This document shows positions 1 through 47,607 of a stretch of DNA of 64,000 nt, one piece after another. Position numbers and translations under genes: made by a program. The stretch is from an uncultured Bdellovibrionales bacterium (GTDB lineage Bacteria > Patescibacteriota > Minisyncoccia > Moranbacterales > UBA1568). The DNA lies in NCBI GenBank assembly GCA_964543815.1, contig CAZIZG010000004.1, positions 5,438-69,437 on the forward strand, read 5' to 3'. How positions within the stretch are numbered: position 1 is the first letter of the stretch; each line of letters starts with the position of its first letter. Below the pieces are notes generated by a model. That model was not told the DNA's origin and searched no databases. It saw only the letters and a list, made by a program, of their open reading frames with translations.

Positions 1-539
1 ACAATAATCTCATCTCCGATAGCGAGTTCTACTCCGGAGAGCGTGTACTGATGGCGAAAAATGAGGCAGGAGAGGAGACTCTCATCCTTACTATCCTTAA
101 TAGTGAAGTACACGACCCGCTCCCGCACATCGACACTCGACACCTCGCCCTGAATCCGCGCTGCCATCCCAGAAAGTTCGATATTGAGTCCATCCAAAAA
201 CTCACTGACCGAGATCGTCTTTTCCTCCGTTGGTGCTAATATTTCGTCCGGGGTACCCACGAGTGACTGAAAAAAAGCATCATTTTCACTTTTTTCTGGT
301 CTTGCCATTTCTGTCGTAACCAGACCACCGTTCTCAGCAATAATTCGCAAAAGAACCGCTCCGTATTTCCCAAACTTGGCCTCTTTGATGCCTTTAACCT
401 GGAGCATCTCTTCTTTCGTTCGTGGTAACGCGCCCACTAACGCTTCCAAAGTAGCATTGGACAGCACCCGATATTGCTCCACTCCTTCGATGCGTGCCTG
501 ATGATTACGCCAATTCCGAAGTTCATTCAAAAGAGACAT
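1..539 (-). CDS. Partial CDS running off the 5' edge. N-terminal HRDC-like domain, then an OB-fold resembling the N-terminus of exodeoxyribonuclease VII large subunit (XseA).
   Basis: Manual reverse-complement translation from ATG at 539-537. It reads MSLLNELRNWRNHQARIEGVEQYRVLSNATLEALVGALPRTKEEMLQVKGIKEAKFGKYGAVLLRII (HRDC pattern), then ...ISVSEFLDGLNIELSGMAARIQGEVSSVDVRERVVYFTIKDSKDESLLSCLIFRHQYTL (XseA-N OB-fold pattern). Absent from the ORF track because it is truncated by the window edge. Confidence 0.5.
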   Translation of the reverse strand, partial: MSLLNELRNWRNHQARIEGVEQYRVLSNATLEALVGALPRTKEEMLQVKGIKEAKFGKYGAVLLRIIAENGGLVTTEMARPEKSENDAFFQSLVGTPDEILAPTEEKTISVSEFLDGLNIELSGMAARIQGEVSSVDVRERVVYFTIKDSKDESLLSCLIFRHQYTLSGVELAIGDEII

Positions 540-826
540 TTACCCTGTGTAATAAGATTTAAGTCGATTGCGCAAAAACATCTTTCCCCTGTACGATTTC
601 AAGTACTTTTCTCGATGTGTTGCATCTTTCTGATTTAGACACGCCTCGTAATATATTAACTCAAGTGGCCTCCTTTCCTTTGTTGATTCTACTAATCCTT
701 TCTGATGTAGCTTAAATCTTAATCGCAAATTATTCGTGTATCCAGTATACATGTTTCCATCTGTTTTACTTTGCAGTATATAAGTATAGAACATACTATA
801 TAATTTGCGATATTACACAGGGTGGA
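539..826. mobile_element. Candidate miniature TIR-bounded unit carrying the GIY-YIG gene. Termini are TTTACCCTGTGTAAT (539-553) and ATTACACAGGGTGG (812-825).
   Basis: Perfect 12-nt inverted repeats bracket the 84-aa ORF. The same motif recurs at 4318-4330, 4440-4454 and 47593-47607. Confidence 0.35.
540..794 (-). CDS. Small stand-alone GIY-YIG nuclease (COG2827/YhbQ-like)
   Basis: 84 aa. Has YTYILQS...GNMYTGYTNNLRLRFKLH ... RPLELIYYEA...REKYLK, the canonical GIY-YIG motif pattern. Its stop codon abuts the ATG of the upstream HRDC/XseA-like gene. Confidence 0.8.
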   Translation of the reverse strand: MFYTYILQSKTDGNMYTGYTNNLRLRFKLHQKGLVESTKERRPLELIYYEACLNQKDATHREKYLKSYRGKMFLRNRLKSYYTG

Positions 827-827
827 A

Positions 828-3800
828 CTATCGTCCTTGGTTATAGAGCGCAGCAACCTCAGCAGCCGAAAAGGCTCGATTGTAAGTTCGCACCTCATCC
901 AATTGTCCACTGAAATACTGCCCATCCGCTGAAGATGCTATATAATCAATCGTTGTGTTCCCAGACTGAGCCACATCGGAAAAAAGACGCGTGGCTGAAC
1001 CGCCATCCACATACAAATCAACTTTGTTACTACTGTTCCTAGTCACTACCATATGGTGCCAGGCATTGACAGCCGCCGGCGCAACCGTGTTATCACTCGA
1101 GCCCCCACCAATAACCCGGATAAAGTAGTTTCCACTCACCAACCCATATTTTATATAAATCCCGCCCGTTGTATCCCCCCCAAGCATTATACCCGTTTGG
1201 GAGTTATTCGATGTTTTATACCACCAAGAATACGTGAATTCTCCAGTATATGTCGTATTCGTCACGTCAACATAGTCATTTGTTCCATCAAATGACAGGG
1301 CCTGACTAATCTTACCAATCGTCTTCGTTGGGCCATTGGTGAGCGTCCCAGTATTTCCTATCCCGCTCCGATCATAGGCTGTCGTCCCACTCATATCCTG
1401 ACCATTGAATGACCAGTAGCCTTTCAGACTGGTGTCGACTCCGGTAGGTGCGGTAAGGCGGTAGAGTCGAGAGATTTCATCACTAGAAAGACCTCGACTA
1501 TACACTCTTACGTCATCAACTGAACCAGGGAAATACTGAGAAGCAGAGCGAAGAGCCCCAACAGAGACACGATCAAAAGTTGTCGTCCCTAGAGTTGTAG
1601 TTGAACTCGCCTGCAAGACCCCATCAATATAGAATTTATGATCTCCAGCTGAGCTACTGACTCCTATGGCATGATGCCAGGTATTATCATTCAAACTACT
1701 CGATGTCGAACACATTGATGCCGAATTAAACTGACCATCATCTCTCACAATATACTTTACTTTTCCTCCCCCACAAGGATCAACACTCGAAGTAAACTGA
1801 AGTACTGCTAATGGATCACCAGAAGAAGCGTTTCCTACATTCACTACTGTTCGATAGCTATCAGTTGCATTAGAAGTCTTAAACCAGGCACTAACAGTCA
1901 GAGGAAATCTCGTTACCGTAGCCGCAGCAGTTGATATATGATCATCCGTCCCATCAAACGTCACAGCACTCCCGATTTGCCCTGTCGTCCAGGTCGGACC
2001 ATTGGTGAGCGTCCCGGTGTTACCATTCGTAGATACGTCGGTGGCACTGGTTCCACTCCCATTATCAAGTGGCCAATAGCCAGCAAGACCGCTATCGAGG
2101 CGGCCGGTCCCTTGAGGCTGAGAAACGCTCGAATTAGTCTTGTCATCAGCCCCAGCGTCATAAAGACCCTTCACTTCAGCCGCAGAAAGAGCTCGATTGT
2201 ACAATCGCCCCTCATCAAGAAGACCGGAGAAATCCCAGTTATTGCCATTTCCTCCAAAAGTAAAAGCGGAGCTCGATGACTGAATAGTGGAGACGGTGGC
2301 TGTCCCCTGATACAGTACCGTACCGTCAAGATAGAGCTTCATTCCATTTGACCCTGTCGTTCCGTCCCACGTCGCCATGAGATAATGCCACTGATTATCA
2401 AGAAGGGGTGTAGCACTCCCGGAAATAACATTGGCTGTTGTCCCATTGGAGGTCTGAAAATAGACGGCGCTCGAAAGAATGCCAATCTCATACACCTTGT
2501 TTGCAGAAAGATCAAAACATTTGTCACTTGATCCTATCGCCTTACTCATAATACAGCTATCAGTATCGCTGGTTTTAATCCATACCCCCATACTGATAGC
2601 TCCAGTGATATCAAGAGTATTGGCATCTGCGACCGTCACATAGTCATCTGTCCCATCAAACGAGAGGGCTTGACCCACTTTCCCAGTTACTTTCGTTGGA
2701 CTATTGGTAAGTGTCCCTGTGTTCTTCGCCCCAGAGCGATCGTAAGCCGTTGTTCCTGAAACATCCTGGCCATTGAATGACCAGTATCCTTTGAGTCCCG
2801 TATCGACTCCAGTAGGTGAGGTAAGCCGATAGAGCTGCGCCACTTCATCAGCGGAGAGAATACGGTTATAAAATCGTACTTCGTCTAAAGTGACATCTCC
2901 ATACAAATCTGGCGAACCACCTCCATTTCTGGCACCCATGATGGCGCTATTGATAGTCAGTCCAGTATTGGGGGTGGTCGTGGTACCACTCCCCGCAAAT
3001 ACTCCATCAATATAAAAGGTCATGAGATTGGCAGCTCCTGAAACCGCCGTTACCATATGCCAGTTGGTATCAGTAATAGTGGTTGTAGAAGTAATATCAA
3101 CAAACCCGGTACCAGTAACCCGAAAGATACAGTGGACCTTATTATCAGTTCCCATGTAGAAAAACAGCCCCTCTTCCTGAACAGAAGCATCCCGCTCCCA
3201 AAATATATAATCCACCTCTCCGGAAGCATCACGTTTCACCCAGGCAGATATGCTCATATTAGCCTGTGGTTTAATGGCAGCCGTTGGGGAGATGGTGATG
3301 TAATCATTGGTGCCATCAAAGGTCACTCCGCTCCCTATCTGCCCTGTGGCCCATGTCGGGCCATTGGTGAGAGTACCATTACTCCCGTTGGTCGAGGCAT
3401 CAGCCGCGCTCGTCCCGGTATTCTCATCAAGCTTCCAGTAGCCCGCCAGTCCTGAGTCAAGGCGACCGGTTCCTTGGGGCTGCAGGATGCTACTGTTCGT
3501 TTTGTCACTTTGACCAAGATTATAGAGAGACTGAATTTGAGCAGCCGTGAGGGCAGTATTATAGACACGGACCTCATCAATAGCTGCGTTTACATTGCGC
3601 TGTCCACCAGTATCATCACCCACGACAAAACTGTCACTATTAGAAACAGAACCGCTAGTAGCAGTCATCGAAGTATTGAAAACGCCATCGATATAGAGAT
3701 AGGTAGTACTCCCCGAACGGAGTCCTACATAATGATGCCACTGATTATCATTGGCTGTTGCTAGAGTAGCAGTGAGGTCATAGTCTGTCGTCCCATTACC

Positions 3801-4316
3801 AATAGCAAAAAGCATTTGATTAGCACTGGAATAACGAAAACCATAGCCAGCAGTGTTCGGGGCGTTCACATTCTTTTTCCCTACAGGAATATTAACCGAA
3901 CTCCCCTGTGATGAATACCCACTCCCTTTCATCCAGAACCCGACCGAAAAATCACCGGAACCGAAATCGAGCGTTCCACCTCCTGGATCACCCATCGTCA
4001 CATAAGCATCAGCATCAGAGCCACCGGGAAAGAAGTTAAGGGCCTGACCAACCTGGCCTTTGACCTTTGCCGGGCCATTAGTGAGTGTCCCGTTGTTCCC
4101 CGAGCCACTTCGATCATAGGCGGTAGTACCAGAAATATCATCTCCGTTAAATGACCAGAGACCAACCAGGCCATTCGTCACCATGTCGTTTTGAGACTGA
4201 TTGAGGGTGCTGCCATACACTTTGAAATACCAATAGGCACCAGCAAAAACGGCCAGTATTAAAACTATTCCAATCCATTGGAACATTCTGGCTTTAGTTG
4301 TTGAGTAGTTTGGCAT
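828..4316 (-). CDS. Giant membrane-anchored secreted protein with four tandem LamG / concanavalin-A-like lectin domains
   Basis: 1162 aa with an N-terminal TM helix (IGIVLILAVFAGAYWYF). Four ~230-aa repeats each end in the LamG signature LDEVRVYNRALSAAEV / LDEGRLYNRALSAAEV / LDEVRTYNRAFSAAEV. The DNA-level repeats are about 80% identical. The gene is flanked on both sides by the ATTACACAGGGT motif. Confidence 0.7.
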   Translation of the reverse strand: MPNYSTTKARMFQWIGIVLILAVFAGAYWYFKVYGSTLNQSQNDMVTNGLVGLWSFNGDDISGTTAYDRSGSGNNGTLTNGPAKVKGQVGQALNFFPGGSDADAYVTMGDPGGGTLDFGSGDFSVGFWMKGSGYSSQGSSVNIPVGKKNVNAPNTAGYGFRYSSANQMLFAIGNGTTDYDLTATLATANDNQWHHYVGLRSGSTTYLYIDGVFNTSMTATSGSVSNSDSFVVGDDTGGQRNVNAAIDEVRVYNTALTAAQIQSLYNLGQSDKTNSSILQPQGTGRLDSGLAGYWKLDENTGTSAADASTNGSNGTLTNGPTWATGQIGSGVTFDGTNDYITISPTAAIKPQANMSISAWVKRDASGEVDYIFWERDASVQEEGLFFYMGTDNKVHCIFRVTGTGFVDITSTTTITDTNWHMVTAVSGAANLMTFYIDGVFAGSGTTTTPNTGLTINSAIMGARNGGGSPDLYGDVTLDEVRFYNRILSADEVAQLYRLTSPTGVDTGLKGYWSFNGQDVSGTTAYDRSGAKNTGTLTNSPTKVTGKVGQALSFDGTDDYVTVADANTLDITGAISMGVWIKTSDTDSCIMSKAIGSSDKCFDLSANKVYEIGILSSAVYFQTSNGTTANVISGSATPLLDNQWHYLMATWDGTTGSNGMKLYLDGTVLYQGTATVSTIQSSSSAFTFGGNGNNWDFSGLLDEGRLYNRALSAAEVKGLYDAGADDKTNSSVSQPQGTGRLDSGLAGYWPLDNGSGTSATDVSTNGNTGTLTNGPTWTTGQIGSAVTFDGTDDHISTAAATVTRFPLTVSAWFKTSNATDSYRTVVNVGNASSGDPLAVLQFTSSVDPCGGGKVKYIVRDDGQFNSASMCSTSSSLNDNTWHHAIGVSSSAGDHKFYIDGVLQASSTTTLGTTTFDRVSVGALRSASQYFPGSVDDVRVYSRGLSSDEISRLYRLTAPTGVDTSLKGYWSFNGQDMSGTTAYDRSGIGNTGTLTNGPTKTIGKISQALSFDGTNDYVDVTNTTYTGEFTYSWWYKTSNNSQTGIMLGGDTTGGIYIKYGLVSGNYFIRVIGGGSSDNTVAPAAVNAWHHMVVTRNSSNKVDLYVDGGSATRLFSDVAQSGNTTIDYIASSADGQYFSGQLDEVRTYNRAFSAAEVAALYNQGR

Positions 4317-4317
4317 T

Positions 4318-4454
4318 CACCCTGTGTAATTCATGATTGAAATAATTTCAATCATGAATAAAATTATTTCCCTACGACCTCTTCATTTTACCATTTTTTT
4401 CCCTAGGATACACCGGGCACACATATGATACATTTTGCAATTACACAGGGTAAA
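4318..4454. repeat. ORF-less 135-bp unit bounded by the same inverted motif (CACCCTGTGTAAT ... ATTACACAGGGTAAA), with an internal 27-bp perfect palindrome at 4331-4357
   Basis: Termini match the GIY-YIG unit termini. The internal palindrome is tcatgattgaaataatttcaatcatga. No ORF. MITE-like derivative or regulatory module. Confidence 0.35.
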
Positions 4455-4460
4455 TAAAAA

Positions 4461-4493
4461 ACAGAGTTCTGCCTGAGGCAGAACTCTGTTTTA
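4461..4493. terminator. Rho-independent terminator hairpin downstream of the DsbA-like gene
   Basis: acagagttctgcc-tgag-ggcagaactctgt followed by TTTT, and A-rich on the other side (bidirectional). Confidence 0.6.
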
Positions 4494-4510
4494 TGCCCTA
4501 AAAAACCCTC

Positions 4511-5341
4511 TTATTTGAGATACTTCTCGATTGTCAGCTTGAAACCATCGATAGACTGAGCCCCAACTACCCGTTCACCGGTTACCGTCCCGTTACTCTC
4601 GAGCTTACCAATAACAAAACTCGGAGTACCAGAAATACCTGCTTTGCCGCCGTCAGCGATGTCCTTCTGAATTTCCTCCTTCACAGCGTCAGTAGCCGAG
4701 CACGTTGCAACCGTCTTGGCATTAGCTCCTACTTTCCCAATGAGCTCATCAAGCTTCCCTGCTACGAGACCTTTGCCGTTAGTCTGAGTATTCTCATACA
4801 ATGCCTTAGCAAAAGCAAAGTAGGCAGTATCACCCTTCTCCTTTCTCACACATTCAGCCGTTGCTGCCTCGATCGTAGCGTTCGGATCGTGAAATGAGAG
4901 CGGAAAATCACGGAAAACCACAATAGCCTTCCCGGTATCGACATAGTTTTTCACCAAAGCATCAAAGGTATCAGCATGAAACTTTTTACAGAAAGGACAT
5001 TCATAGTCGCTATACTCCACGATAGCCACTTTGGCTTTCTTCTTATCTCCGAGGACGGGATCATCATCAATAGAGGTGACAGCACTCGTATCCTGATTAC
5101 CCGGCGCTGCCTGCTGAGTTCCCTGAGCAGTACCCGTTCCTTTCGTAGCTCCCTGAGGAGAGAGCGTCAGGATAGAACCCGCAATGATAAGACTCCCTAA
5201 AAGGACCGCTCCGGCTACCAAAAGTGCCTCCTTCAGTAATTTCTTTTCACAGGCACCACACTTTCCACATTTCTGACATGCGGAACCATCAGCAACTGGC
5301 ACGACTGACTCTTCCTTTGTCGGCAAAACTTCATTTTCCAT
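4511..5341 (-). CDS. DsbA-family thiol:disulfide oxidoreductase, membrane-anchored, with a Cys-rich cytoplasmic N-terminus
   Basis: KVAIVEYSDYECPFCKKFH thioredoxin-fold active site. Has an N-terminal CQKCGKCGAC cluster, then a TM helix. Confidence 0.8.
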   Translation of the reverse strand: MENEVLPTKEESVVPVADGSACQKCGKCGACEKKLLKEALLVAGAVLLGSLIIAGSILTLSPQGATKGTGTAQGTQQAAPGNQDTSAVTSIDDDPVLGDKKKAKVAIVEYSDYECPFCKKFHADTFDALVKNYVDTGKAIVVFRDFPLSFHDPNATIEAATAECVRKEKGDTAYFAFAKALYENTQTNGKGLVAGKLDELIGKVGANAKTVATCSATDAVKEEIQKDIADGGKAGISGTPSFVIGKLESNGTVTGERVVGAQSIDGFKLTIEKYLK

Positions 5342-20197: not shown

Positions 20198-20913
20198 TAA
20201 TTTTCATTCTGTGCGGCGATAACCAAGAGTCTTTCAAGAGTCGTACCGGCTGGATAGCACGTCATGAGAGTAAGTGTTCTGCTATTCCTATTCCCTGAAA
20301 GATATTCCACTTGCTCGGGCTTCACCCTTTTCTTTTCAATGACATGATACGCTATTCTCTTTTTCTGATAAAAAACAACTATTTCATCCCCCTGTTGCAG
20401 TTTATCAATCAGATAGAAGAGGGCATTGTAACGATTGGCCTGAAATGCATCGATGCCCGAATGAGCAAAGAAAAAAACGTTTCCGAAATCACCAGGGCTG
20501 GCTGTTCCCTTTGCTTGGGCCACCCCTAAAGTAAGCGCTTGTTGATACTCAGATGGGTTGCGCCAATCAACATCTGGAATTACTACTGCATTGGCACCAA
20601 TCTTAGGAATTACTATCCCAAATTCCTCACTGACGGGTATAAGTACCTGGGACGAGTCAAGCTTCCGATCTTGCCGTTCCGTCTCTGTCATAACTTTCTT
20701 CCCTTCCTGTGAAGGAAGCAACTGATACTTTGCTTCTTCTTTCAAGACGGGGAAAAAATGCAAAAAGAGCAGAAAAACAGACACTACCACAAGGGCAATG
20801 CCTGTTTTTTCGATCCAAAAGCCACTGATACATTCACTACTCTGACTGGACATGCTTGTTGTGATAAGCGTGATATCCGATATACCCGACAAGACCGATA
20901 ATAAAAATTCCAA
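20194..20913 (-). CDS. Sortase-family transpeptidase
   Basis: TLMTCYP (TLxTC catalytic Cys motif). N-terminal TM. Overlaps the 3' end of the giant LPXTG ORF. Confidence 0.7.
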   Translation of the reverse strand: MEFLLSVLSGISDITLITTSMSSQSSECISGFWIEKTGIALVVVSVFLLFLHFFPVLKEEAKYQLLPSQEGKKVMTETERQDRKLDSSQVLIPVSEEFGIVIPKIGANAVVIPDVDWRNPSEYQQALTLGVAQAKGTASPGDFGNVFFFAHSGIDAFQANRYNALFYLIDKLQQGDEIVVFYQKKRIAYHVIEKKRVKPEQVEYLSGNRNSRTLTLMTCYPAGTTLERLLVIAAQNENY

Positions 20914-23900
20914 AAAGCAATCGCCACGGACGCGCTTTTAGATTATCCTGCAAACTGTCACCTTCTCCAGGAGTCTCGGTCGTATCACCCAGAACTGATT
21001 TCTGATTCAAGATAGCGTCTTCATTATCCTTTCCAGACTCCTGAACAGTGGCTACTCCTTCCACTTGGCCCTCAATCACAGCTCTGTCCTGAGAAACAGG
21101 GATAGCTCCTGATGATGCAGAGGCCTCCTGAAGCGTCACCGTGGTTGTTTTTTTCTTAATTATCGTATGAGTATCAACATTAACATCTTTATCCCCCACA
21201 AAACCCGAATCATTCCCGTTGACGGCCACTGCTCGCATAGCATAATACGCGTCATTGCTGCACCCCGGAGCAACCTCAACAAAGCCACCGTTTGTATTAG
21301 AACCAATGATTTGCTCATCCACCTTGGTCGCTGCATCAGCAATAAACGTCGTTTCAAAGGAACGATAGAGTTCAACTTTTACTGTCTTGCCACCGTCATC
21401 GGCCGTTGTAAACGTAATAACATTTTGGCAAGAGGCATCACTCCGCTGATAATGAGAGGGGACACCTGGTAACAAAGAGGCCAGTGTCAACGAGACGTGA
21501 TTGCTTTCAGCGGTCTCATTACCAAAACCAGAAGCACGTACCTTTACGTAAAACTCATACAATCCATCAGTAGGCATCACACTACTATCAATCTGACAAT
21601 CACCCGAGTTTCCTCCAAAACTTGATGGCAGCACCATTGAAACAAAAGGTGATACATCGCTATTCTTGTAGCACTCCACGGTGAGAGGCCGTCCCAAAAC
21701 ATCAAGTGTCACGAAACCTATCTTCTGTGTAGCAGAATCCACTACCAATTTTGGAGTTTCAATTTTCACAGAAAGTCCGGCCGCCTGCACTGTATGTGGT
21801 GAAAGTATCACTATCCCCAACAAAATAAGAACTGGTGTCATCATTTTCTTTCGACGCGATACATAGACAAGCATCAACCCAATGACGATGCCTAATACTG
21901 ATAAAAGAGGTGTATTGATACTCGCTCCCGTCATTGGTAATATCGTCGTTGCCCCAAGTACGTATTGTGTCTTTTTCTGTGTTTTTTCTACCTGCTTGTT
22001 TTCGTTATCCTCCGGTATCACTACTATCTGCTTATTCGGAAGAACAACGTTGACCTCTGTCCCAACAAAGGGGTCAGCCACGCTATTTGCTAGGATTGTC
22101 TCGGTATCAGCACTCCCCCTCGCAAAAGCCAAATCCCGATAGAGGCCAGCGTCTTGAGCATCACTAATCTTTGTTTTGTAAGTAAGAGTCTTTGTTTCAC
22201 CAGCAACCATATCACCCAAATCCCAAATTCCTGGCGAAGCATACTCATGGAGGAACGGTGCCCCTTCACCACTGCCTGGTACATAGACAAATCCCTCCGG
22301 TGGCAGATCTGTTACCGTCACATTGTCTACTGCTCCCTCCAAGGCTGTCACCTCAAGGGTATACGCCACTTCATTACCAGGAACCTCATCCCCAATACTA
22401 TTATTGAACTTACGGAGCTGCAGTCGTGGTACCCGCTCCTTCTCTCTTTTGACATTCCAGGCCACACAATAATACGTTGATGCATTTTCCGAGGCATCCA
22501 TGAAGTCATAGTTATCATAATTCACTACGTCTTTATGACAGTAGAATTCAGCAGAGACATCATCGCTATTGGGATCTTCCGAATTTTTACCGTAGGTAAA
22601 CGGGATATACTGATCACTCCAAATCTCCCGGACCCAAAGAAGCGGCGAACTCTTCAGATCAACATCAACACTCGCTTCACCACTCACACCAGTAGGTCCA
22701 AAGGTATGCCAGTCAGGACTGGCTGACTCACCGGTGTTATCACCAGGATTATCATTACTATAGTAAGCCCACTGAAATCGCCAATCCTCCTCAAAGCGGC
22801 ATCCTTCATGAGTATTTACCCAATCAGTAGCCGTTATTGCTGTCATATCCGGACCACCCAAGCCGTAGTTAGGTAAATCACTCTCGCTCTCACAAACAAT
22901 CTTGGTAGCTACAATGTGAGCAACCTGCTGATTCTTAAAAGTACACGTTACGGTTTCACCTGGGTTCAAATCAATGGCATTAGGCTTACTTCCATCACTA
23001 CAAAAAGCGCTTTCGAGCCTCCAGCCAGTCATCGGTAATTCCGTCACCGAGTACGTACCGGAGGTAAGGCTCCCCCTACTGTATTCTTCACCATCAGTCA
23101 GGGAAAATCCTCCTTCAGAGAAGTTCGTGCTAAAAGAAAATATCTGGTCACTCCCTGCCGGATCTGTTTGCTTTTTAACTATAATCTTCGCAGGCTTTTC
23201 AACATTCCACGCCACACAGTAATACGTTCCACCAGCAACCGGCCGATCAATCCAGTCCCAATTATCATAATTCACCACGTCTTTATGACAGTAGAATTCG
23301 GCCGTGACATTATCATTATTCGGTTCTTCCGGATTCTTACCATAAGTAAACGGGATGTAGTTTTCATCCCAGACTTCACGTAACCAGACTGGTCGCGTTG
23401 CATCACCCTCGAAACCAGCCAATGGCACAATGGTAGTACCACTGAAGACATGCCAATCGCCACTAGTCACACCCGTATTATCTCCAGGATTGGGTACGCC
23501 ATCATAACTCCACTCAAATTGCCAATCACGCTTTATATGGCAACCAGGGTGGGTCGCCACCCATAAACTCGCTGTTACTGCTGTCATATCCGGACCACCC
23601 AAGCCGTAGTTAGGTAAATCACTCTCGCTCTCACAAACAATCTTGGTAGCTACAATTTCAATCGGAGCATCATCATTGGTTATAACACAATAAGCATCAC
23701 CACCAGCCTGAAGCTGGCCTTCACAGCCCTTACTATAACTGGTTTCATATCCAAGAGCTGGCTCCTCTGTCACTCCGTACGATCCTGGCAATAAGACAAG
23801 ATCGCTAGTACCATCACTATCAAAAGCTGCAGCCTCTCCCTCATTCAACACATAAGAAAAGTCTTCTGGACGACCAGTGCCGCCATCATCATTTATCACT

Positions 23901-26110
23901 ACTTTAGTAATATGAAGCGTTCCTGGATTTGCAACAAGATGACAATCTTGAGAACAGGAGTATTGTCCACCCTCTACTCCCCCGTCACACTCCTCACTCT
24001 CTTGGTTCACCATATTATCCCCACAGTAAGGATCAGCTACTATTTTTGTATTGGTATAAGTACAAGTAATATTTTCTCCTGGCATTAGAGTAATATCCGC
24101 TGTAGCATTCGCTGGCATATCAAGAGAAACATTCGATGCAACACAGTTCATGTCCGAAAGTTCCCAGCCAGAAACCGCATTTTCCGTAAAGGAATACTGT
24201 CCCGGCAAGAGTGAGGAGAAACTTACGGTATTAGAAAGTCCATTTTCATTATCACCATCATCATCAAGCACAAAACTACTTATTTCAGTTCCTGTTGTTG
24301 TGAAAGAAAAATCCTGTACATCATTAGGTACGGCATTTTTCACAATAGTAATCGAGCCTCTCTTTACAGCATTACTGAAGGTGCAAACCGTAGCGCTATC
24401 AGCCACTACCCGTACCAAAGCCCCCGCTCCCTCTGGCAATAGAGTACAATTCGCCCCAGAAACCTCGGCGATGCTATACGATGCCAGACCAATTTCTGTG
24501 ATAGTGTGCTGCCCAGTCGGAACCGCACCAAAGTCTACTAACCCATTCGTATCAGCTGTAATAGGCGCATTGTTATCCAGCTGAAAACTCCATGCTGAGA
24601 GTGAGGAACCATCATCAACTATTTTCACTACTTTTAAACTTCCTGTCGCCACGCAGTTGTTATTCCACACAGCCTGACCGCCCGCATCCCAATTTTGACC
24701 AGGATAGTGAGTCTCCCCTACCACAAAGGCCGGGATAATATCCGCGCTATGCTCGGTAGCATGAGCACTACCCATCACTGAATCATCATCTACCTGTATC
24801 GATTCATAACCATTGGCAGCAGTATCCGGCGGAGTAGCATGACAAATAGTAATCGGCACGTGTTGTACCACCGGAGTAGCCACTACCTCAAAGGCATCAG
24901 AGAAAGTAGTAGGCCCGGTACAGCCAGAGGTACCGTATTCTTTCAGCTCCGCTGCCCAATGGGTAGAAACCGTGGCACTTCCTGGTAGAACATAAGTGGC
25001 TGAATATGTTGTCACTCCATCGCCTGGATTGAAACAACTGCTATTAGGAATAGAAAATGAGCTTCCTACTGGAGGATTAATAAAAATTTTATAAAACTTA
25101 CTATCATTGAGACCAGTCGCCTTTACGTAGACTGTATCTCCTGGCATATAGCTACTTTTATCAACAGAAAATGCCACATCGCCATACGTAGCCACAAACA
25201 AGGTAAAGTGATCCAGGTTTACACTTACCGCTGTATCATTTTTCTCTATATATCTATCAGAAACAGTGGCTGCGTGTTCAATATCAGTGGCATCTTCAGT
25301 ATATTTTACTCGAACATCCTTTTTTTCGCCTTTTGGAATAGGGAGAGTAAGCGTATAGGCAAACGTCCCATTCTCCATAGAAGAAGTGACTTCATAGGCC
25401 GTATGAGAAAACGCTCCAAGGAGAGCCACTTGTTCATCCGACAGTGTCACTGTTTCAATAGAGAGGGTTCCTGAATCATCTGGCAACTTAGTAAAAACTA
25501 CCGTTACTCCGTCATTTTGCGGAGCTACATACTTTTCATTGAGAATAACCTTATGCCTTGTTGTGGCTTTTTTTCCGTTCTGTTCCCAGATGGAGATGGA
25601 ATCGTCCTTCATTTTTATTGAGGGCCCCTCCTGTTCTGTTGTTTCAACCACACTCTCAGTTTTTGTGGCTGAAAAATCCGTCAGGGGCACTGGTTCGGCT
25701 GAGACCTGGTCAGTCTCATTCGATACTGACTCCTCTCCCGCCTCTTCAGCCAACTCTCCTCCCAACACTAAAGCAGCTGACGCCATTCCATCGGAATCAT
25801 TTAGCGAAGGCTCTGAAGTAACCACTTCGGTAGCGGAATGTTCGTCATTCTTTTTTATCTCTGTTTCTTTCTCAGTTTCATTTTTTTCAGAATCCAATTC
25901 TGTTCCTTGCTTGTCATCTGAAACTGCCATTACCTCTGATACTACCTCTTCATCAGCCGCCACCGCCACACTCTTACTCAAGGAAAAAGTTCCTGAAACA
26001 CCTGCCACACTTATCGGTTGTAACACCAGGGCGAATATTACCCCTAAATTTAATCCCCTCTCCAAAAGAACGCGTGCTCCTCGTTTCATACCTTTTCGGA
26101 ATATCCGCAT
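20837..26110 (-). CDS. Giant cell-surface protein with an internal canonical LPXTG sorting signal and a tandem-duplicated ~247-aa domain
   Basis: 1757 aa with an N-terminal signal/TM. At about nt 21850-21950 it reads LPMTGAS + hydrophobic stretch + SRRKK. This is followed in frame by MMTPVLILLGIVILSPHTVQAAG (signal-peptide-like), a ~330-aa domain and a C-terminal TM. Confidence 0.7.
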   Translation of the reverse strand: MRIFRKGMKRGARVLLERGLNLGVIFALVLQPISVAGVSGTFSLSKSVAVAADEEVVSEVMAVSDDKQGTELDSEKNETEKETEIKKNDEHSATEVVTSEPSLNDSDGMASAALVLGGELAEEAGEESVSNETDQVSAEPVPLTDFSATKTESVVETTEQEGPSIKMKDDSISIWEQNGKKATTRHKVILNEKYVAPQNDGVTVVFTKLPDDSGTLSIETVTLSDEQVALLGAFSHTAYEVTSSMENGTFAYTLTLPIPKGEKKDVRVKYTEDATDIEHAATVSDRYIEKNDTAVSVNLDHFTLFVATYGDVAFSVDKSSYMPGDTVYVKATGLNDSKFYKIFINPPVGSSFSIPNSSCFNPGDGVTTYSATYVLPGSATVSTHWAAELKEYGTSGCTGPTTFSDAFEVVATPVVQHVPITICHATPPDTAANGYESIQVDDDSVMGSAHATEHSADIIPAFVVGETHYPGQNWDAGGQAVWNNNCVATGSLKVVKIVDDGSSLSAWSFQLDNNAPITADTNGLVDFGAVPTGQHTITEIGLASYSIAEVSGANCTLLPEGAGALVRVVADSATVCTFSNAVKRGSITIVKNAVPNDVQDFSFTTTGTEISSFVLDDDGDNENGLSNTVSFSSLLPGQYSFTENAVSGWELSDMNCVASNVSLDMPANATADITLMPGENITCTYTNTKIVADPYCGDNMVNQESEECDGGVEGGQYSCSQDCHLVANPGTLHITKVVINDDGGTGRPEDFSYVLNEGEAAAFDSDGTSDLVLLPGSYGVTEEPALGYETSYSKGCEGQLQAGGDAYCVITNDDAPIEIVATKIVCESESDLPNYGLGGPDMTAVTASLWVATHPGCHIKRDWQFEWSYDGVPNPGDNTGVTSGDWHVFSGTTIVPLAGFEGDATRPVWLREVWDENYIPFTYGKNPEEPNNDNVTAEFYCHKDVVNYDNWDWIDRPVAGGTYYCVAWNVEKPAKIIVKKQTDPAGSDQIFSFSTNFSEGGFSLTDGEEYSRGSLTSGTYSVTELPMTGWRLESAFCSDGSKPNAIDLNPGETVTCTFKNQQVAHIVATKIVCESESDLPNYGLGGPDMTAITATDWVNTHEGCRFEEDWRFQWAYYSNDNPGDNTGESASPDWHTFGPTGVSGEASVDVDLKSSPLLWVREIWSDQYIPFTYGKNSEDPNSDDVSAEFYCHKDVVNYDNYDFMDASENASTYYCVAWNVKREKERVPRLQLRKFNNSIGDEVPGNEVAYTLEVTALEGAVDNVTVTDLPPEGFVYVPGSGEGAPFLHEYASPGIWDLGDMVAGETKTLTYKTKISDAQDAGLYRDLAFARGSADTETILANSVADPFVGTEVNVVLPNKQIVVIPEDNENKQVEKTQKKTQYVLGATTILPMTGASINTPLLSVLGIVIGLMLVYVSRRKKMMTPVLILLGIVILSPHTVQAAGLSVKIETPKLVVDSATQKIGFVTLDVLGRPLTVECYKNSDVSPFVSMVLPSSFGGNSGDCQIDSSVMPTDGLYEFYVKVRASGFGNETAESNHVSLTLASLLPGVPSHYQRSDASCQNVITFTTADDGGKTVKVELYRSFETTFIADAATKVDEQIIGSNTNGGFVEVAPGCSNDAYYAMRAVAVNGNDSGFVGDKDVNVDTHTIIKKKTTTVTLQEASASSGAIPVSQDRAVIEGQVEGVATVQESGKDNEDAILNQKSVLGDTTETPGEGDSLQDNLKARPWRLLFGIFIIGLVGYIGYHAYHNKHVQSE
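22180..23660. repeat. Tandem duplication (2 x ~741 bp) inside the giant surface-protein gene
   Basis: A 74-bp identical block occurs at 22842-22915 and 23583-23656. The protein repeats begin HIVATKIVCESESDLPNYGLGGPDMTA. Confidence 0.7.
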
Positions 26111-39758: not shown

Positions 39759-40412
39759 TCAATGTAATACGAGACGAAACATATCTATAAGAAAGTAAAA
39801 AAACCAACTCGCCCCCCAAGCGTACCACAACGATCCCGAATAATACACTATGAGACCCGAAAAAAGAGAGAATATGAGAGCGGGCACTCGCTGCCAAGAG
39901 AGATCATCAGCCAAAAAGAGAAGTCCAACGAAAAGGAATGCCTGAATAAAAACAGCAACCAATCCAAAGGAACTTAGCCACAGACGCTGCACGAGTCCTC
40001 GAAAAAAGACTTCATACAACAAAGCCATAAAAGGAACAAGGAGCGCTTCATACAAGAGAAACCACAAAAAATTTGACTGGATGGTATACGAAAGCGTATA
40101 GCCGGTACCAAAACTCGTGTATCGGTCCAGTGCAAAAATGATAGCCAGCGCTACTGATACCGAGATGATACTAAAAAACATGCCAGGAAATATCCTTCCC
40201 GTTTGCCAGCCAATATTTTTTAAAGGTTCCTTCAGTATTATTTTACAATATAACATTGGAACTACCAAGAAGAAGGTAAGACTCACCAAAAAAGTCTGAA
40301 ACACCGGATTCACCTTATCACTTTGACTAAAAAGACCAAGGAAGAGAACCGTAAATACTACCAAGAGTCCGGTAATAAGAAAACGTTTATCAAGCGATAT
40401 TCTCTCATTCAT
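39759..40412 (-). CDS. CPBP-family (CAAX-protease-like) intramembrane protein
   Basis: Multi-TM. LLYEVFFRG resembles the EExxxR motif. Low certainty. Confidence 0.4.
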   Translation of the reverse strand: MNERISLDKRFLITGLLVVFTVLFLGLFSQSDKVNPVFQTFLVSLTFFLVVPMLYCKIILKEPLKNIGWQTGRIFPGMFFSIISVSVALAIIFALDRYTSFGTGYTLSYTIQSNFLWFLLYEALLVPFMALLYEVFFRGLVQRLWLSSFGLVAVFIQAFLFVGLLFLADDLSWQRVPALIFSLFSGLIVYYSGSLWYAWGASWFFYFLIDMFRLVLH

Positions 40413-40416
40413 AGTT

Positions 40417-40980
40417 TTAGGCTACTTTCTCTGCGGGTGTATTAGAGTATTGAGCATCATTAACAGCTTCTGCTGCCTCCTCAGCCATCATAGCCTGCTG
40501 TGCCATCTGAGCCTGAAAACGATAGGCTTCGGCCTGCCGATTGGCATTATCTTTCTTTTGCTCTTCCCAGAGACGCTTCTGTTCTTTCTTTGCCGCTGAC
40601 TTCGCCATAACATAGAGCGCAATAACAGTCAGGGTTTCTATTGGGAGAAAATTCAGACCAAATCCAATAGCTTCCAAAAGAGAAAGAAAGAGGAGCACCA
40701 GGCTGCGAGCAATCTGATTATTCTGCTTCCCTCCAGATTTATCAAACATCGTCATGAGAATCCAGATAAGAAAACTGAAGCACAGCGTTATGACCGTTCC
40801 TATTCCTGGTAACGAACCCACTCCTACCAAATCAAGTAGATCTTTAAGGAGCGCAACTAATGCCAGCCCTAAATACAGCATAAAAGAAGGCTTCACAGCG
40901 GTAAAGCTTGCTGTTTTGCCACTGGTTGCCTTGTTGTAGGCACTCACGAGCATTCGTGCCTGTGGTGGGAGTACCGCCAT
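40417..40980 (-). CDS. Hypothetical membrane protein (3-4 TMs plus C-terminal coiled coil) in the T4SS-like cluster
   Basis: 187 aa. Hydropathy pattern only. Confidence 0.4.
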   Translation of the reverse strand: MAVLPPQARMLVSAYNKATSGKTASFTAVKPSFMLYLGLALVALLKDLLDLVGVGSLPGIGTVITLCFSFLIWILMTMFDKSGGKQNNQIARSLVLLFLSLLEAIGFGLNFLPIETLTVIALYVMAKSAAKKEQKRLWEEQKKDNANRQAEAYRFQAQMAQQAMMAEEAAEAVNDAQYSNTPAEKVA

Positions 40981-40997
40981 ACCAATACCCTACTAGT

Positions 40998-43187
40998 TTA
41001 GTTGCCCGAATCAAAATCTTTCTTTGCTTCTTCAATTTCCAATAACTGACGTGGATCCGAGGTAATAATCTGATCTTCACTATAGGAAGCAATGACTTTG
41101 ATAGCGGCATGCTTTGTCCCGGCAAAGAAAATCCCTTCACCGACATTGCTTTCCAAAAGAAGAAACTTCTCATGATCGGTCAGAAAAAATGTCTCCGCTA
41201 CCAAATCGATAGACGAGGGCGATTGACGAAGAAGCAATTGAAGCGACGAGTTGGTAATAATTGGCTTCCCATAGCGTGAAGACATAAAATCCCCAATATC
41301 CTGAGTAATAGTCGTCAGCCCAGTAAAGTACTTACGGCAGCGTTTAGCAATACCAAAAAGGAAAGCGGCAGCGTCTTCATGTTGCATCATTACCCAGGCC
41401 TCATCCACCACAATCACCCGTTTCTTCATATGGGTACGAATCTCATTCCAAATGAACTGAAGAATAATGTACATAGCGATTGGGCGCAATTCTTCTTCCA
41501 GATCACGAATGTTAAATACTACTAACTGATTCTCCATCTCAATGTTGGTTTGTTTATCAAGAAATCCCCCAAAAATACCCTCCGTGTAACGTTCCAGGCG
41601 AGCTGAGAGCGATTCCGCACCATCCATATTCTGTAAAACAGCGTACAAATCTGACATGGTCGGAAAAGAAGTACTCGTCAATTGAGAAAAATCACTAACA
41701 CCCGTAATATCCCGAATAGCATACGTTTCACGTATAGCCCGATCCAATATAGAATCTTCTTCCGGAGTAACTGATCCGAGCATGAGATGAAGCAAACCAA
41801 TCAGGTTGGCAATGGTGTTACGAAACAATCCTTCTGTATCCTCATCTTCCACTTGTTTAGGCAAATCAAAAGGATTCAAATGTACATTAGAATTGAGTGA
41901 CACCTTGAGAAAGGTGCCGCCGACGGCCTCACAGAGGTGTTTATATTCATTTTCAGGATCGAGAATGATAACACTCGAATTAAACATCATGGCCCGCAGG
42001 ACCTCAAGTTTGACGGTATAACTCTTACCAGCACCAGACTTAGCAAACACTACCATGTTGGCATTCTCCATTTTGAATCGATCAAAAAGAATCAAGCTGT
42101 TATTGTGCCGATTGATGCCGTAGAGCACCCCTTGATTAGATGACAGATCAGAAGAAACAAACGGGAAAGTGGTCGACAACGGCTCAGTGTTCAAGTTATT
42201 CCCGACGTCAAGCACGTCCATAGCAAGCGGCCGAGTCGCTGCAAATCCCTGATCCATCCGAAGGATAGCAGCTTTTGTATACACAAGCTGCGCTTCAAGA
42301 ATAGATTCAATTGACCGACACTTATCATTCAAATCGGCATCATCTTTGCCATATACCGTCATGTAAAGACCAGCCCGGAAAAATTTTTCCGTTCCTTGCT
42401 GCAGTTTGTCCCGCAAACTTTCAATGTCAGTAAGAGCAGTTTCAAGCATGGGATCGCGGATTTTACCGTCCTCTGTTTCAATATGGATTTGTGACTGTAC
42501 CTGCGTCGCCGACTTACGTAAATTCTTCATTATCTCCGCCGTATCAATCGGATGGATAAAAAGGGCAATATCCATGCTGAAATCAATGTTGATAATCGGC
42601 GAAAACCAGTTCGTCGAGAGATACCGGGGATACGCAACCACAAAATAGGTCCGAGCCAGTACCCCGCCAATACGCATACTATTGGAATTGACCTGAATAG
42701 CCGGAGGAGCAATAAGATCACGCAGGGTGGCGATGCCCTGACGATACAGAGCTTCAGCCTCCTTGGTATTTTCGTTCCGACCAGAAAGAGTCAGGCCGGC
42801 TGATGACTGTGGCACAGCCTGCGGTGGCATTAGCACGGATACCTCAGACACGATTGGCTCCGACGTAACATCTACTACTGGCTCTTCCGTTACTATTGGT
42901 TTCGGAATCACGGGCTCATCCGCTCCACTCCGGAAAGTCTCCTCTTGATGAGCTGGAAGCGAAGTTTCATCTTTTTCCCCCTCCTCCTTGGACACTGGTG
43001 CCATCGAAACCGTTTCCGCTCCAAAGGTAATAGGTGGCTGAGTTATCTCTTCCTTCTTCTCTGCTTCTAAAACAACCACGGGCTGTTCTTCCTTGATTTC
43101 TTCAGGGGGAAGTGGCGTAGAGATAATGACCGGTGACTGCCCATTCAGGAGTGGTCCTTTGTTGTCTCGAAATACGATGCGATCCAT
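40998..43187 (-). CDS. VirB4/TrbE-family T4SS ATPase (ATPase domains), with an N-terminal Pro/Glu-rich low-complexity region
   Basis: Walker A FAKSGAGKSYTVK, DPENEY, Walker B VIVVDEAWVM. Confidence 0.85.
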   Translation of the reverse strand: MDRIVFRDNKGPLLNGQSPVIISTPLPPEEIKEEQPVVVLEAEKKEEITQPPITFGAETVSMAPVSKEEGEKDETSLPAHQEETFRSGADEPVIPKPIVTEEPVVDVTSEPIVSEVSVLMPPQAVPQSSAGLTLSGRNENTKEAEALYRQGIATLRDLIAPPAIQVNSNSMRIGGVLARTYFVVAYPRYLSTNWFSPIINIDFSMDIALFIHPIDTAEIMKNLRKSATQVQSQIHIETEDGKIRDPMLETALTDIESLRDKLQQGTEKFFRAGLYMTVYGKDDADLNDKCRSIESILEAQLVYTKAAILRMDQGFAATRPLAMDVLDVGNNLNTEPLSTTFPFVSSDLSSNQGVLYGINRHNNSLILFDRFKMENANMVVFAKSGAGKSYTVKLEVLRAMMFNSSVIILDPENEYKHLCEAVGGTFLKVSLNSNVHLNPFDLPKQVEDEDTEGLFRNTIANLIGLLHLMLGSVTPEEDSILDRAIRETYAIRDITGVSDFSQLTSTSFPTMSDLYAVLQNMDGAESLSARLERYTEGIFGGFLDKQTNIEMENQLVVFNIRDLEEELRPIAMYIILQFIWNEIRTHMKKRVIVVDEAWVMMQHEDAAAFLFGIAKRCRKYFTGLTTITQDIGDFMSSRYGKPIITNSSLQLLLRQSPSSIDLVAETFFLTDHEKFLLLESNVGEGIFFAGTKHAAIKVIASYSEDQIITSDPRQLLEIEEAKKDFDSGN

Positions 43188-43197
43188 GATGCTGTAA

Positions 43198-43878
43198 TTA
43201 GGCGAGTTCTATTTTGCTCACGTCTTTCATTACCGTCGAGGTAAAGAGCGACGGGTTGTAGCTATTATAAAGCAATTCGATAATTTCCTCTGTATTAAGT
43301 TGGGTCACCTTGACTCCAGCTCCCGACATAGCTGCCGCAATATGATCCACCCGTTGGAGTAATTGGCTTTTGTAAGTTTCAAATAACCCACTCTTCATGG
43401 AACTCGCTTGTTTAGGACGGAATATACCGAGTAGCTTATCGAGTAGTCCACTCGCTTGATCTTCCACGGGTGAAAATGGCACTACAATATAAAAATACTT
43501 CGACATGATATTGGAAACCTCACTCAAATTCTTGATGAAATTCTTGTACTCACTAATCTGAAACCGGAGAAGTTCATTCATCTGCTGCTTTTCTTCCTCT
43601 GCGAGCAACTCGACGTAAGGACCGATATTGAAACGCCTTGATTGAATGACAATTTGAACTGGAAAATCAAGCGAATTAAGAAAAGCTTGATACTGAGCAA
43701 TAATAGCATCCTGCTCCTGACTTGATTTGAGGTCGAAATTAATAGAGGAAACCAAAAGTACAGCCCGGAGCGCTCCACTTTTAAGCACCATCACGCCGTC
43801 ACGCATCTCCTCCACATCAACATACTTTTGGGTACTTGATGCACTCACTCCCGGCTTTTTAGCTTTCAATAATTCCAT
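43198..43878 (-). CDS. Stand-alone VirB4 N-terminal-domain-like protein (CagE/TrbE/VirB N-domain pattern)
   Basis: DGVMVLKSGALRAVLLVSSINFDLKSSQEQDAIIAQYQAFLNSLDFPVQIVIQSRR matches the VirB4 N-domain pattern. Sits 11 bp upstream of the ATPase ORF, in a different frame. Confidence 0.5.
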   Translation of the reverse strand: MELLKAKKPGVSASSTQKYVDVEEMRDGVMVLKSGALRAVLLVSSINFDLKSSQEQDAIIAQYQAFLNSLDFPVQIVIQSRRFNIGPYVELLAEEEKQQMNELLRFQISEYKNFIKNLSEVSNIMSKYFYIVVPFSPVEDQASGLLDKLLGIFRPKQASSMKSGLFETYKSQLLQRVDHIAAAMSGAGVKVTQLNTEEIIELLYNSYNPSLFTSTVMKDVSKIELA

Positions 43879-43910
43879 AGATTCACGCTACTGAAGTTAC
43901 CACCTTCCTT

Positions 43911-44309
43911 CTAACGTTGATCAATTAACCGGGCTAATTCTGCCAACTTCTCACGCGTCAACTCCTTTTCCATTGGCGCTTGGACTTGGGTCTTTTGATT
44001 CGTTGGTGCTTTAACCGTAGGAAGAACCGCAACCGGACGTTCCCAAACCGCTACCTTGGGACGGAAAACGAACAACGTTGCACTTCCGAGAAAAGTAGTC
44101 ATCGGGAGACCACTCGGCTGGTAGAAAGCCATCGCGCAGAAAATAAGCACAACTGGAATAGCGATAATAATCGAAAGCGATGTATCAAAAATACTAAATA
44201 CGACAAGTAGTACACCAGCCATACCAATCATCCAGAGGAGTTGTTTCCAGGTTAGAGGACCGACAATTTTGTCCTCAACATCAATAAATTGTGGGACGGA
44301 AAACATCAT
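43911..44309 (-). CDS. VirB3/PrgI-like small two-TM protein
   Basis: 132 aa with two adjacent TM helices, positioned directly upstream of VirB4 as in T4SS operons. Confidence 0.4.
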   Translation of the reverse strand: MMFSVPQFIDVEDKIVGPLTWKQLLWMIGMAGVLLVVFSIFDTSLSIIIAIPVVLIFCAMAFYQPSGLPMTTFLGSATLFVFRPKVAVWERPVAVLPTVKAPTNQKTQVQAPMEKELTREKLAELARLIDQR

Positions 44310-47452: not shown

Positions 47453-47592
47453 ACGTTACACGAGAGAGAAGCCCGTAATCAAAGACTCAATCATGAACGA
47501 AAAAAATCTGTTTCGTTCGCGCGTATTATACCACAAGAAATCGGAAATATAAAAACCCTGCGTAATTTCGCGAAGCAGATTGGCTCTGCCAG

Positions 47593-47607
47593 ATTACACA
47601 GGGTAAA
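47593..47607 (+). repeat. Solo copy of the ATTACACAGGGTAAA motif
   Basis: Exact 15-mer, identical to 4440-4454 and to the reverse complement of 539-553. Confidence 0.5.

Follow-up and report, generated by a model that had tools for sequence, protein, structure and literature searches.

Single-domain GIY-YIG proteins of the group CDD cd10448, named Ssn, act as site-specific nucleases of single-stranded DNA (ssDNA) (Chenal et al., 2025, Nat Commun, PMC11893778). Binding takes place at a hairpin repeat (NTS/SRM), and such hairpins usually flank their genes (PMC11893778). In Neisseria, the neighborhoods of membrane-protein genes are rich in NTS hairpins, which modulate transformation; the unit NTS-ssnA-NTS was likened by the authors to insertion sequences (IS) and REP/RAYT units (PMC11893778). 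In this study we analyzed a stretch of 64,000 nucleotides from an uncultured bacterium of the Moranbacterales (assembly GCA_964543815.1, contig CAZIZG010000004.1, positions 5,438 to 69,437), hereafter called the window. Two subjects are treated: a long gene for a putative surface protein with LamG domains, which an earlier note on this DNA had described as bracketed by copies of the inverted motif ATTACACAGGGT, and a small selfish element around an 84-aa GIY-YIG nuclease gene, of which this motif is the closing-stem arm.

The Ssn/SRM pair is the closest known system. By analogy, the element of the window would work like an Ssn/SRM unit with a different layout, and is a candidate rather than a proven member of that system. 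Both encode a short protein made of a single GIY-YIG domain, with 84 aa in the window and 94 aa in SsnA, and in both the gene is enclosed by an inverted repeat that recurs elsewhere in the genome as hairpins without an open reading frame (ORF). The window has three such pairs. Among 46 related loci, 17 show further copies of the local arm no more than 4 kb away, and in several of these the copies form ORF-less inverted pairs with loops of 15-120 nt. Furthermore, the hairpin sequence varies between genomes along with the protein, a surface-protein gene has copies beside it, and the layout is similar to that of an IS or REP/RAYT unit. However, there is no complete local hairpin on each side of the gene here; instead, the ORF is placed between the two halves of one single stem. 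The last codons make up its 3' half, a further stem lies within the coding sequence, and the element abuts host start codons. None of the papers covered by our literature search described a layout with the nuclease gene inside its own stem.

Nuclease genes flanked by inverted palindromic repeats that are also found alone in intergenic regions are known from REP/RAYT (TnpA-REP) and from IS200/IS605. The element shares with them the lack of target-site duplications and single-strand hairpins as likely substrate, whereas its enzyme has a GIY-YIG fold instead of being an HUH/Y1 transposase and its arms overlap the coding sequence. Bacterial MITEs (miniature inverted-repeat transposable elements), such as the Correia elements of Neisseria, have terminal inverted repeats, lie just upstream of genes and may contain sequence resembling promoters. 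The ORF-less copies described here, of about 50-135 bp with terminal inverted repeats and just upstream of genes, are similar in these respects. In contrast to MITEs, they derive from a GIY-YIG gene through loss of the loop of a stem, and they have neither a TA duplication nor a DDE transposase partner. Finally, free-standing GIY-YIG homing endonucleases (phage T4 Seg/Mob, I-TevI) share with the element the catalytic core, the position of a selfish gene wedged between host genes and presence or absence among relatives. However, these endonucleases carry a separate DNA-binding domain, while the catalytic domain stands alone here and is embedded in a conserved hairpin.

Anatomy of the element

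We regard it as probable that the window holds an ordinary LamG gene and, separate from it, a family of GIY-YIG hairpin elements with ATTACACAGGGT as their arm, LamG being a neighbor and not the cargo. If one mismatch is allowed, the motif occurs six times in the 64-kb window, compared to 0.22 expected copies. The six copies form three inverted pairs, each of the form ACCCTGTGTAAT...ATTACACAGGGT. The first pair (542-553 with 812-823, 256 nt between the arms) encloses the GIY-YIG gene, the second (4319-4330 with 4440-4451, 107 nt) ends 2 nt before the LamG start codon, and the third (47555-47566 with 47593-47604, 26 nt) is a minimal hairpin. The arms are essentially identical across all three pairs while the interiors are unrelated, as would be expected if the arms were the part that is recognized in trans. 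Folding z-scores of the window elements, taken as one strand that encloses the nuclease gene, range from -3.5 to -5.4.

The intact element (542..823, minus strand) is bounded by a 13-nt perfect inverted repeat. Its closing stem P1 pairs a 5' arm at 812-823 with a 3' arm at 542-553, the latter being the end of the nuclease gene itself (TAT TAC ACA GGG TAA), so that it comprises the last codons, YYTG, and the first base of the stop codon. A second stem, P2, is a 12-nt perfect inverted repeat between the 5' untranslated region (UTR; 800-811) and codons 21-24 (722-733), while the third stem, P3, joins codons 25-28 (711-720) to 554-563, directly abutting the 3' arm. All stems lie on the minus strand, and together they make up a three-way junction in which only one base is unpaired. 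P2 is kept in the 84-aa subfamily only.

The enclosed gene (540..794, minus strand) encodes a protein of 84 aa that consists of one GIY-YIG domain (Pfam PF01541, E=1.4e-15), which spans residues 1-70 and scores 57.7 bits against a gathering score of 22.6. Residues Y5, Y16, R26, H30, E62, and N76 are invariant in the alignment of homologues; judged by I-TevI-like spacing, they are presumably the catalytic positions. Among solved structures, the nearest chains are UPF0213 proteins, which match weakly (E=5.6e-5). NCBIfam holds no specific model for the 84-aa nuclease, viral contigs contained no homologue, and a tblastn search of plasmids with the protein gave two weak, unannotated matches only. 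Directly after the stop codon follows the ATG (537-539) of xseA, the gene of an HRDC-exonuclease VII large subunit (TAAATG). The 5' part of xseA occupies 1..539 on the minus strand of the window, while the full gene with its Pfam assignment is found in L001. With its position in front of xseA, the intact element stands right after the LamG stop codon.

A homologue scan with the GIY-YIG protein, limited to one genome per species, led to 80 loci from Patescibacteria, Omnitrophota, Planctomycetota, Desulfobacterota, Bacteroidota, and others, with 89% identity for the best match. The layout of the window element recurs in most of them: in 50 of 69 usable loci, the stretch immediately before the ATG and the last codons form a perfect inverted repeat of 10 nt or more. 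Among these loci, which were selected for having a repeat, 11 of the 14 positions of P1 changed on both sides while 98% of cells are paired. P3 is found family-wide as well, with codons ~24-28 pairing with the 10-16 nt directly 5' of the 3' arm (45/51 loci, compared to 3/51 for a control region), with other sequences in the 84-aa subfamily than in the 86-aa one. From 48 whole elements in a plain MAFFT alignment, RNAalifold predicted both P1 and P3 de novo, with 12 of 19 pairs compensatory. The contigs with the closest LamG homologues, L013 and L014, carry small GIY-YIG genes enclosed by inverted repeats of another sequence, CCCGTTAGAGTCA and ATCCCGTTAGAGCCA, which differ by a compensatory change.

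One contig stands apart by its size: L028, from an isolate of Desulfoferrobacter suflitae, is 563 bp long as a whole and consists of a GIY-YIG element and the partial hairpin that follows it. This suggests a multi-copy repeat that breaks assemblies.

Position at start codons and mobility

The elements are found beside the start codons of host genes. In 35 of 69 loci (51%) a host ORF starts within -4 to +10 nt of the GIY-YIG stop codon, compared to 16% of control ORFs taken from the same loci (odds ratio 5.2, p=2e-8), and a 4-nt stop/start overlap (ATGA/GTGA) is present in 30% of loci compared to 4.5% of controls.

Orthologous loci, retrieved via xseA and compared at the LamG-xseA junction, comprise filled, empty, and remnant sites. 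The junction of the window holds the intact element. In L097, L098, and L099 the LamG stop codon is followed after 4-7 nt by the xseA ATG, with no arm in between. L096 has the same left flank as the window (TAGTTCCAC), but only a 3'-arm remnant (ATTATACAGGGT) before the ATG. In L095 a solitary 5'-arm-like sequence of another element class (TCCCGTTAGAG, L095:120-150) supplies the LamG stop codon, while neither a nuclease gene nor a 3' arm precedes xseA. Presence and absence are also seen between L013 and L014, which are otherwise syntenic and carry their small GIY-YIG genes at different sites. Distant relatives (L100-L105, L110, L113) show the order DsbA, terminator, promoter-like site and xseA, and lack LamG. 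Thus, LamG is a later arrival at the DsbA-xseA locus.

Two further observations concern elements close to LamG homologues. Just upstream of the LamG homologue, L014 (7584-7829) has an 81-aa ORF of the 23S_rRNA_IVP type (four-helix bundle) where L013 (7736-7996) has the GIY-YIG gene, and no convincing inverted repeats surround the ORF of L014. Moreover, in L013 (7640-8060) and in L088 and L091 (3910-4300) the element lies inside the LamG leader: a truncated leader ORF (e.g., MSDYIFTRSRIFQWMGIILALGIIALPR, then the stop) is ended by a TAG in the 5' arm, and a complete second leader follows after the 3' arm.

The decayed copy in front of LamG

The second motif pair belongs to an ORF-less ("solo") GIY-YIG element (4319..4451, minus strand) with its 5' arm at 4440-4451, its 3' arm at 4319-4330 and an interior of 107 nt. 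Aligned to the intact element and to the solos of L102 and L116, this interior proved to be the decayed 5' part of a GIY-YIG gene. The solo retains the 5' UTR (TTGCAAA...CATATGT), a decayed N-terminal coding part, a palindrome at the site of P3 and the "YTG-stop-ATG" end. The palindrome (4329..4359) is a perfect one of 15 bp that abuts the 3' arm, in the position of P3 with the loop deleted. The window solo aligns with the solos located before xseA in L102, L103, and L116, which are clearly GIY-YIG pseudogenes with exactly the P3 loop lost. As ssDNA it folds with z=-4.3. It begins a few nt past the T-run of the intrinsic terminator (4458..4492, minus strand) of a DsbA-like gene (4511..5341).

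The solo could matter for its host gene. In L096 the LamG ATG is preceded by GGAGGTAGCCT with the Shine-Dalgarno sequence GGAGGT, and no arm was found in the 11 nt visible before this ATG. In the window, the 3' arm of the solo takes that place. Since the solo thus replaces the Shine-Dalgarno sequence, it may now influence LamG expression, and the decayed copy would contribute promoter-like and start-site sequence to LamG. We further observed that the arms of the solo extend to 24 nt with 83% complementarity (4308-4331 with 4439-4462) and take in codons 1-3 of LamG, so that the LamG start codon could be masked in a read-through transcript.

The LamG gene

On the minus strand, 828..4316 is an unbroken ORF of 1162 codons with an ATG start, as the earlier note had it. 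Its only strongly hydrophobic segment is an N-terminal signal-anchor at codons 11-33 (4218..4286, minus strand; Kyte-Doolittle maximum at aa 9-33), which bears out the membrane anchor of that note; it is reasonable to assume that the remainder of the protein lies outside the membrane. The assignment to LamG/ConA-like domains was likewise correct, while their number was not: the protein has five instead of four. Pfam assigns the full protein to Laminin_G_3 (PF13385, concanavalin A-like lectin/glucanase superfamily) in five stretches (E=5.9e-120), and if scanned singly, all five segments (~205-228 aa) score 84.4-95.9 bits against a gathering score of 27.6 and cover profile positions 1-151. An ending of the type '..DEVRxYNRxLS..' is indeed present in each, five times instead of four (aa 247, 478, 701, 934, and 1140).

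The domains follow each other in A-B-A-B-A order on the minus strand. Domain 1 (type A, aa 44-271, 3504..4187; 95.9 bits) and domain 2 (type B, aa 284-501, 2814..3467; 89.7 bits) are followed by domain 3 (type A, aa 502-725, 2142..2813; 84.5 bits), domain 4 (type B, aa 738-957, 1446..2105; 91.6 bits) and domain 5 (type A, aa 958-1162, 831..1445; 84.4 bits). Domain 3 shares 49% aa identity with domain 5, and domain 4 shares 48% with domain 2. Between the domains, identity amounts to 33-49% at the protein level and to 46-54% for codon-threaded DNA, while the best ungapped repeat stretches reach 68-72% over 120-150 nt. Their spacing of 1368/1374 nt corresponds to a two-domain unit and thus fits the types A (domains 1, 3, 5) and B (2, 4). 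Tandem Repeats Finder detected no array within the gene. Consequently, neither the nucleotide identity of about 80% that the earlier note had given for the repeats nor the recent domain amplification it drew from this holds for this gene, the more so as the same sequence was assembled identically in 16 contigs. The domain order is, as judged by this divergence, the result of an old duplication of a two-domain unit.

Homologues of the LamG protein are numerous: at E<=1e-10, at least 1255 were found among the candidates scored, and of the few named by source, most are "LamG domain-containing protein" of Candidatus Moraniibacteriota/Moranbacteria; these names suggest a genome of Patescibacteria, probably Moranbacteria, for the window. 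By length, the homologues group around 920, 1160, 1390, and 1630 aa, and full-length homologues share 36-53% identity with the window protein. Copy number of the repeats does vary among relatives. Examples have 4, 5, 6, or 7 domains, and the syntenic orthologue of L099 (2276-3079, in the order DsbA-LamG-xseA) is a protein of 268 aa with a single domain by Pfam, where the window and L096 have five; the range is thus 1-7. Recent amplification can be found elsewhere in the family. The Moranbacteria contig CAVZUR010000004.1 carries two LamG paralogues (L088:3827-8166 and L091:3827-8096) that are 93% identical in DNA over a shared stretch which starts 174 nt upstream of the GIY-YIG element and runs more than 4 kb into LamG. 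Within these genes, ~0.93-kb stretches recur every ~1.38 kb, the two-domain period, with 92-94% DNA identity. Thus, recent amplification exists in the LamG family but not in the window gene.

The LamG protein is a predicted cell-surface protein of an ordinary, known kind. It shares the N-terminal anchor and the tandem Laminin_G_3 domains with other LamG surface proteins (PF13385) of Moranbacteria and Patescibacteria, from which nothing essential sets it apart besides five domains where relatives have 1-7. Such multi-LamG proteins are common in Patescibacteria, and the protein adds little by itself. Its five concanavalin A-like domains would adopt a jelly-roll beta-sandwich fold, and its role would most likely be the binding of sugars or surface molecules (adhesion). 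The sole sequence link to a solved structure leads to 4qvs, from an S-layer domain protein (E=3.5e-8). LamG-like similarity is also shared with TafC of haloarchaeal Tat-fimbriae: the equivalog model NF052521 of NCBIfam matches in five stretches with 151.7 bits, far under its cut-off of 410. However, TafC is archaeal and Tat-dependent (PMC11821415), while the window protein shows no sign of a Tat motif.

How the element may work

The following picture is partly built on analogy with the Ssn nucleases. P1, formed by the region 5' of the nuclease ATG and the last codons, and P3 would enclose the whole nuclease gene in a hairpin or three-way junction of one strand. The nuclease may recognize this hairpin, its own, in ssDNA, and such recognition may underlie the spread, copying, or retention of copies. 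The elements are located directly in front of host start codons, in many cases with overlapping stop and start, and decay into ORF-less hairpins that keep their arms. In the window, there are the intact copy before xseA, the decayed copy before LamG and the minimal hairpin at 47.6 kb. The anatomy, the covariation, the filled, empty, and remnant sites and the place next to start codons were observed, whereas recognition of the hairpin by the nuclease, the strand and type of nucleic acid, and any effect on LamG expression are inferred.

Taken further, one might tentatively propose, as a possibility we rate below even odds, a hitherto undescribed hairpin-guided selfish element. It would consist of a catalytic-domain-only GIY-YIG gene inside its own recognition structure, dock precisely at host starts, supply a stop codon, a start codon, and possibly a promoter, leave behind ORF-less hairpins that can be mobilized in trans, and recurrently remodel the 5' ends of LamG genes in Moranbacteria. 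LamG is possibly a preferred insertion site of the element.

More informative than the LamG protein is the motif, which links these genomes to Ssn and hairpin-repeat systems, albeit in a different layout with the gene inside the hairpin and docked on start codons. If the 84-aa protein recognizes its stem in ssDNA, a wider set of paired nuclease and hairpin specificities would exist. This would explain the numerous, patchily distributed tiny GIY-YIG genes in genomes of candidate phyla, and it would provide a mechanism by which surface-protein genes of episymbionts gain new 5' ends and expression signals. For annotation, we suggest caution: where short inverted motifs stand at the borders of genes, they can be traces of such elements and not regulatory sites of the gene they touch.

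Several points weigh against the reading of a mobile element separate from LamG. The motif copies were counted within 64 kb of genome only, and the P1 statistics derive from the selected loci. The stems could act in RNA, not DNA, and the G.U excess discussed below tells neither apart. In the source population no presence/absence variation was seen, as all junction-spanning contigs carry all copies. No target-site duplication is found at the flanks of the elements (GTTCC/AAATG and TTATTT/GAATG). Finally, the SRM pattern HGTCWYN(0-2)YYVSBRHN(0-5)WNVSBRGN(0-2)RNCYNB has 0 matches in the window and 4 in the 548 kb of the 80 homologous loci, none of them within 300 nt of a GIY-YIG gene.

Alternative explanations

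The geometry on which the earlier note relied is real, with one motif copy (812-823) 4 nt past the LamG stop codon and another (4319-4330) 2 nt before its start. However, these copies 2 and 3 belong to two separate pairs, as copy 2 partners copy 1, copy 3 partners copy 4, and both remain unpaired across LamG. It is therefore very improbable that LamG is the cargo of a composite transposon or cassette between inverted copies 2 and 3, although the tight fit of 2-4 nt at both ends and the distant relatives with DsbA directly beside xseA and no LamG (L100-L105, L110, L113) would agree with it. The two copies face outward (ATTACACAGGGT...ACCCTGTGTAAT), opposite to all three real pairs, and each has its own partner 107-256 nt away. 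Neither a transposase nor a target duplication is found at LamG. Moreover, LamG stands without motif copies at the readable junctions of L097-L099: L097 and L098 have none at the LamG-xseA junction, and L099, with the order DsbA-LamG-xseA, has none at either LamG end, which contradicts LamG as cargo between these copies. The element as such does not fit a cut-and-paste transposon with terminal inverted repeats or a MITE either: its ends are inverted, but no duplication is present and its only encoded protein is the GIY-YIG domain. The other suggestion of the earlier note, LamG as a target, is partly right, since the element family does sit immediately 5' of the start codons of LamG and xseA. 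One could also think of a functional bracket of the Neisseria type, in which single strands, incoming or in replication, are cut by the nuclease at the hairpins that flank LamG, with an effect on recombination, transformation, or diversification of this gene. Neisseria has its NTS hairpins in clusters beside membrane and host-interaction genes, and an NTS-gene-NTS arrangement alters transformation rates (PMC11893778). In line with this, two of the three motif pairs in the 64 kb flank one surface-protein gene, and elements are also seen at the 5' end of LamG genes in L013, L088, and L091, and in L074 one follows a LamG gene. We nevertheless consider such a bracket quite unlikely. L097-L099 keep LamG in place with no hairpin at the readable junctions, the start-codon-proximal position of the element can account for the association with LamG, and LamG paralogues are so abundant in these genomes that adjacency may be chance.

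A primarily regulatory role of the pair before LamG, be it as promoter and 5' UTR or as an RNA hairpin that masks the start codon, appears unlikely to us, while it has more than one observation on its side. The solo occupies the place of the GGAGGT of L096, its extended, 83% complementary arms cover the first LamG codons, it contains promoter-like sites (TTTACC-18-TATCAT), and the block TGGTAAAAT, which can be read as an extended -10, is conserved in the solos of L102 and L116. However, promoter-like matches are not enriched over shuffled sequences (9 vs. 7.4), the block is explained by decayed GIY-YIG codons (D-G-K-W-Y), and the motif encloses a nuclease gene and another hairpin too, so that regulation would be at most a secondary use. 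The nature of the folded strand leads to a further alternative, namely an element that acts at the RNA level, with stems that are cut (e.g., by RNase III) or couple translation, and with the nuclease gene as a stable resident. Stems cut by RNase III are known from ORF-bearing intervening sequences of 23S rRNA. In the pairs predicted by RNAalifold, G.U combinations exceed A.C (43 vs. 17), which is suggestive of the sense strand as the folded species and speaks for such an element, as do the location of the 5' arm at the ribosome-binding region and of the 3' arm at the stop codon beside the next start, and the 23S_rRNA_IVP ORF that replaces the GIY-YIG gene of L013 in L014. Within P1 the corresponding test (G.T vs. 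A.C) gave 3 vs. 2, too few mismatches to be of use. P1 is almost always perfectly Watson-Crick paired, with 98% of cells and very few inner wobbles; this is unusual for RNA stems across phyla and looks more like DNA. The ORF of L014 has no flanking inverted repeat, the filled, empty, and remnant sites together with the multi-copy spread point to DNA mobility, and Ssn proteins do not bind RNA (PMC11893778). We thus give the RNA-level element little probability. That the number of LamG repeats is an assembly artefact, a worry raised in the earlier note which the short-read origin of the assemblies could favor, is practically negligible. With ~50% DNA identity the repeats are too divergent for collapse, and the identical 1162-aa product was obtained from 16 independent contigs of several samples through three assembly pipelines (MEGAHIT, SPAdes, Logan), which makes a collapsed or expanded assembly very unlikely.

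Further features of the window

The third motif pair (47555..47604, minus strand) consists of a 12-bp stem with one G.T pair and a 26-nt loop, followed by TTTTTATATTT. On one side of it is a LysM-CHAP gene, on the other the next promoter-like site. With its stem, the TTTTTATATTT run and a fold z-score of -3.5 it could be read as an intrinsic terminator, while the terminator scanner, beyond whose limits a loop of 26 nt falls, reported none. The remaining hairpins of the window look like ordinary terminators. Searches of the window for a second arm class (CCCGTTAGAG) and for other hairpin families gave matches at chance level only. In Rfam 15, tRNAs alone exceeded the gathering score within the window, and a permissive scan of 400-4600 led to FuFi-1 with 23 bits, where 59.6 are needed.

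Other readings of the motif were discarded. As a Shine-Dalgarno sequence or as the -10 element of a leaderless mRNA it would leave only 2 nt to the ATG, and half of the copies face away from starts. A sigma-54 site or a simple operator does not fit either, as no consensus is present and the spacing varies from 26 to 256 nt.

The third hairpin adjoins the upstream edge of a run of minus-strand genes (39759-47452). Besides a TraG/VirB4-like P-loop ATPase (40998..43187), this run encodes large proteins with no Pfam match, and it may be a type IV secretion or conjugation-like cluster. At 20837-26110 (minus strand) the window encodes a predicted surface protein of 1757 aa with SpaA-like prealbumin-fold and DUF11 domains, to which no motif copy is adjoined. 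Beyond the window, a PriA-like gene of Portnoybacteria (L081, 1867-4011, minus strand) contains apparently in-frame hairpin repeats of the true NTS/SRM type (CGTCATCCCGCGCTTGACGCGGGATCCAG, e.g., at 2098-2126); a GIY-YIG gene that belongs to the present family is about 1.9 kb away. Finally, the exonuclease VII large subunit encoded by xseA (1-539 on the minus strand of the window, L001:13778-15337) begins with an HRDC domain; this unusual fusion is kept in the retrieved relatives.

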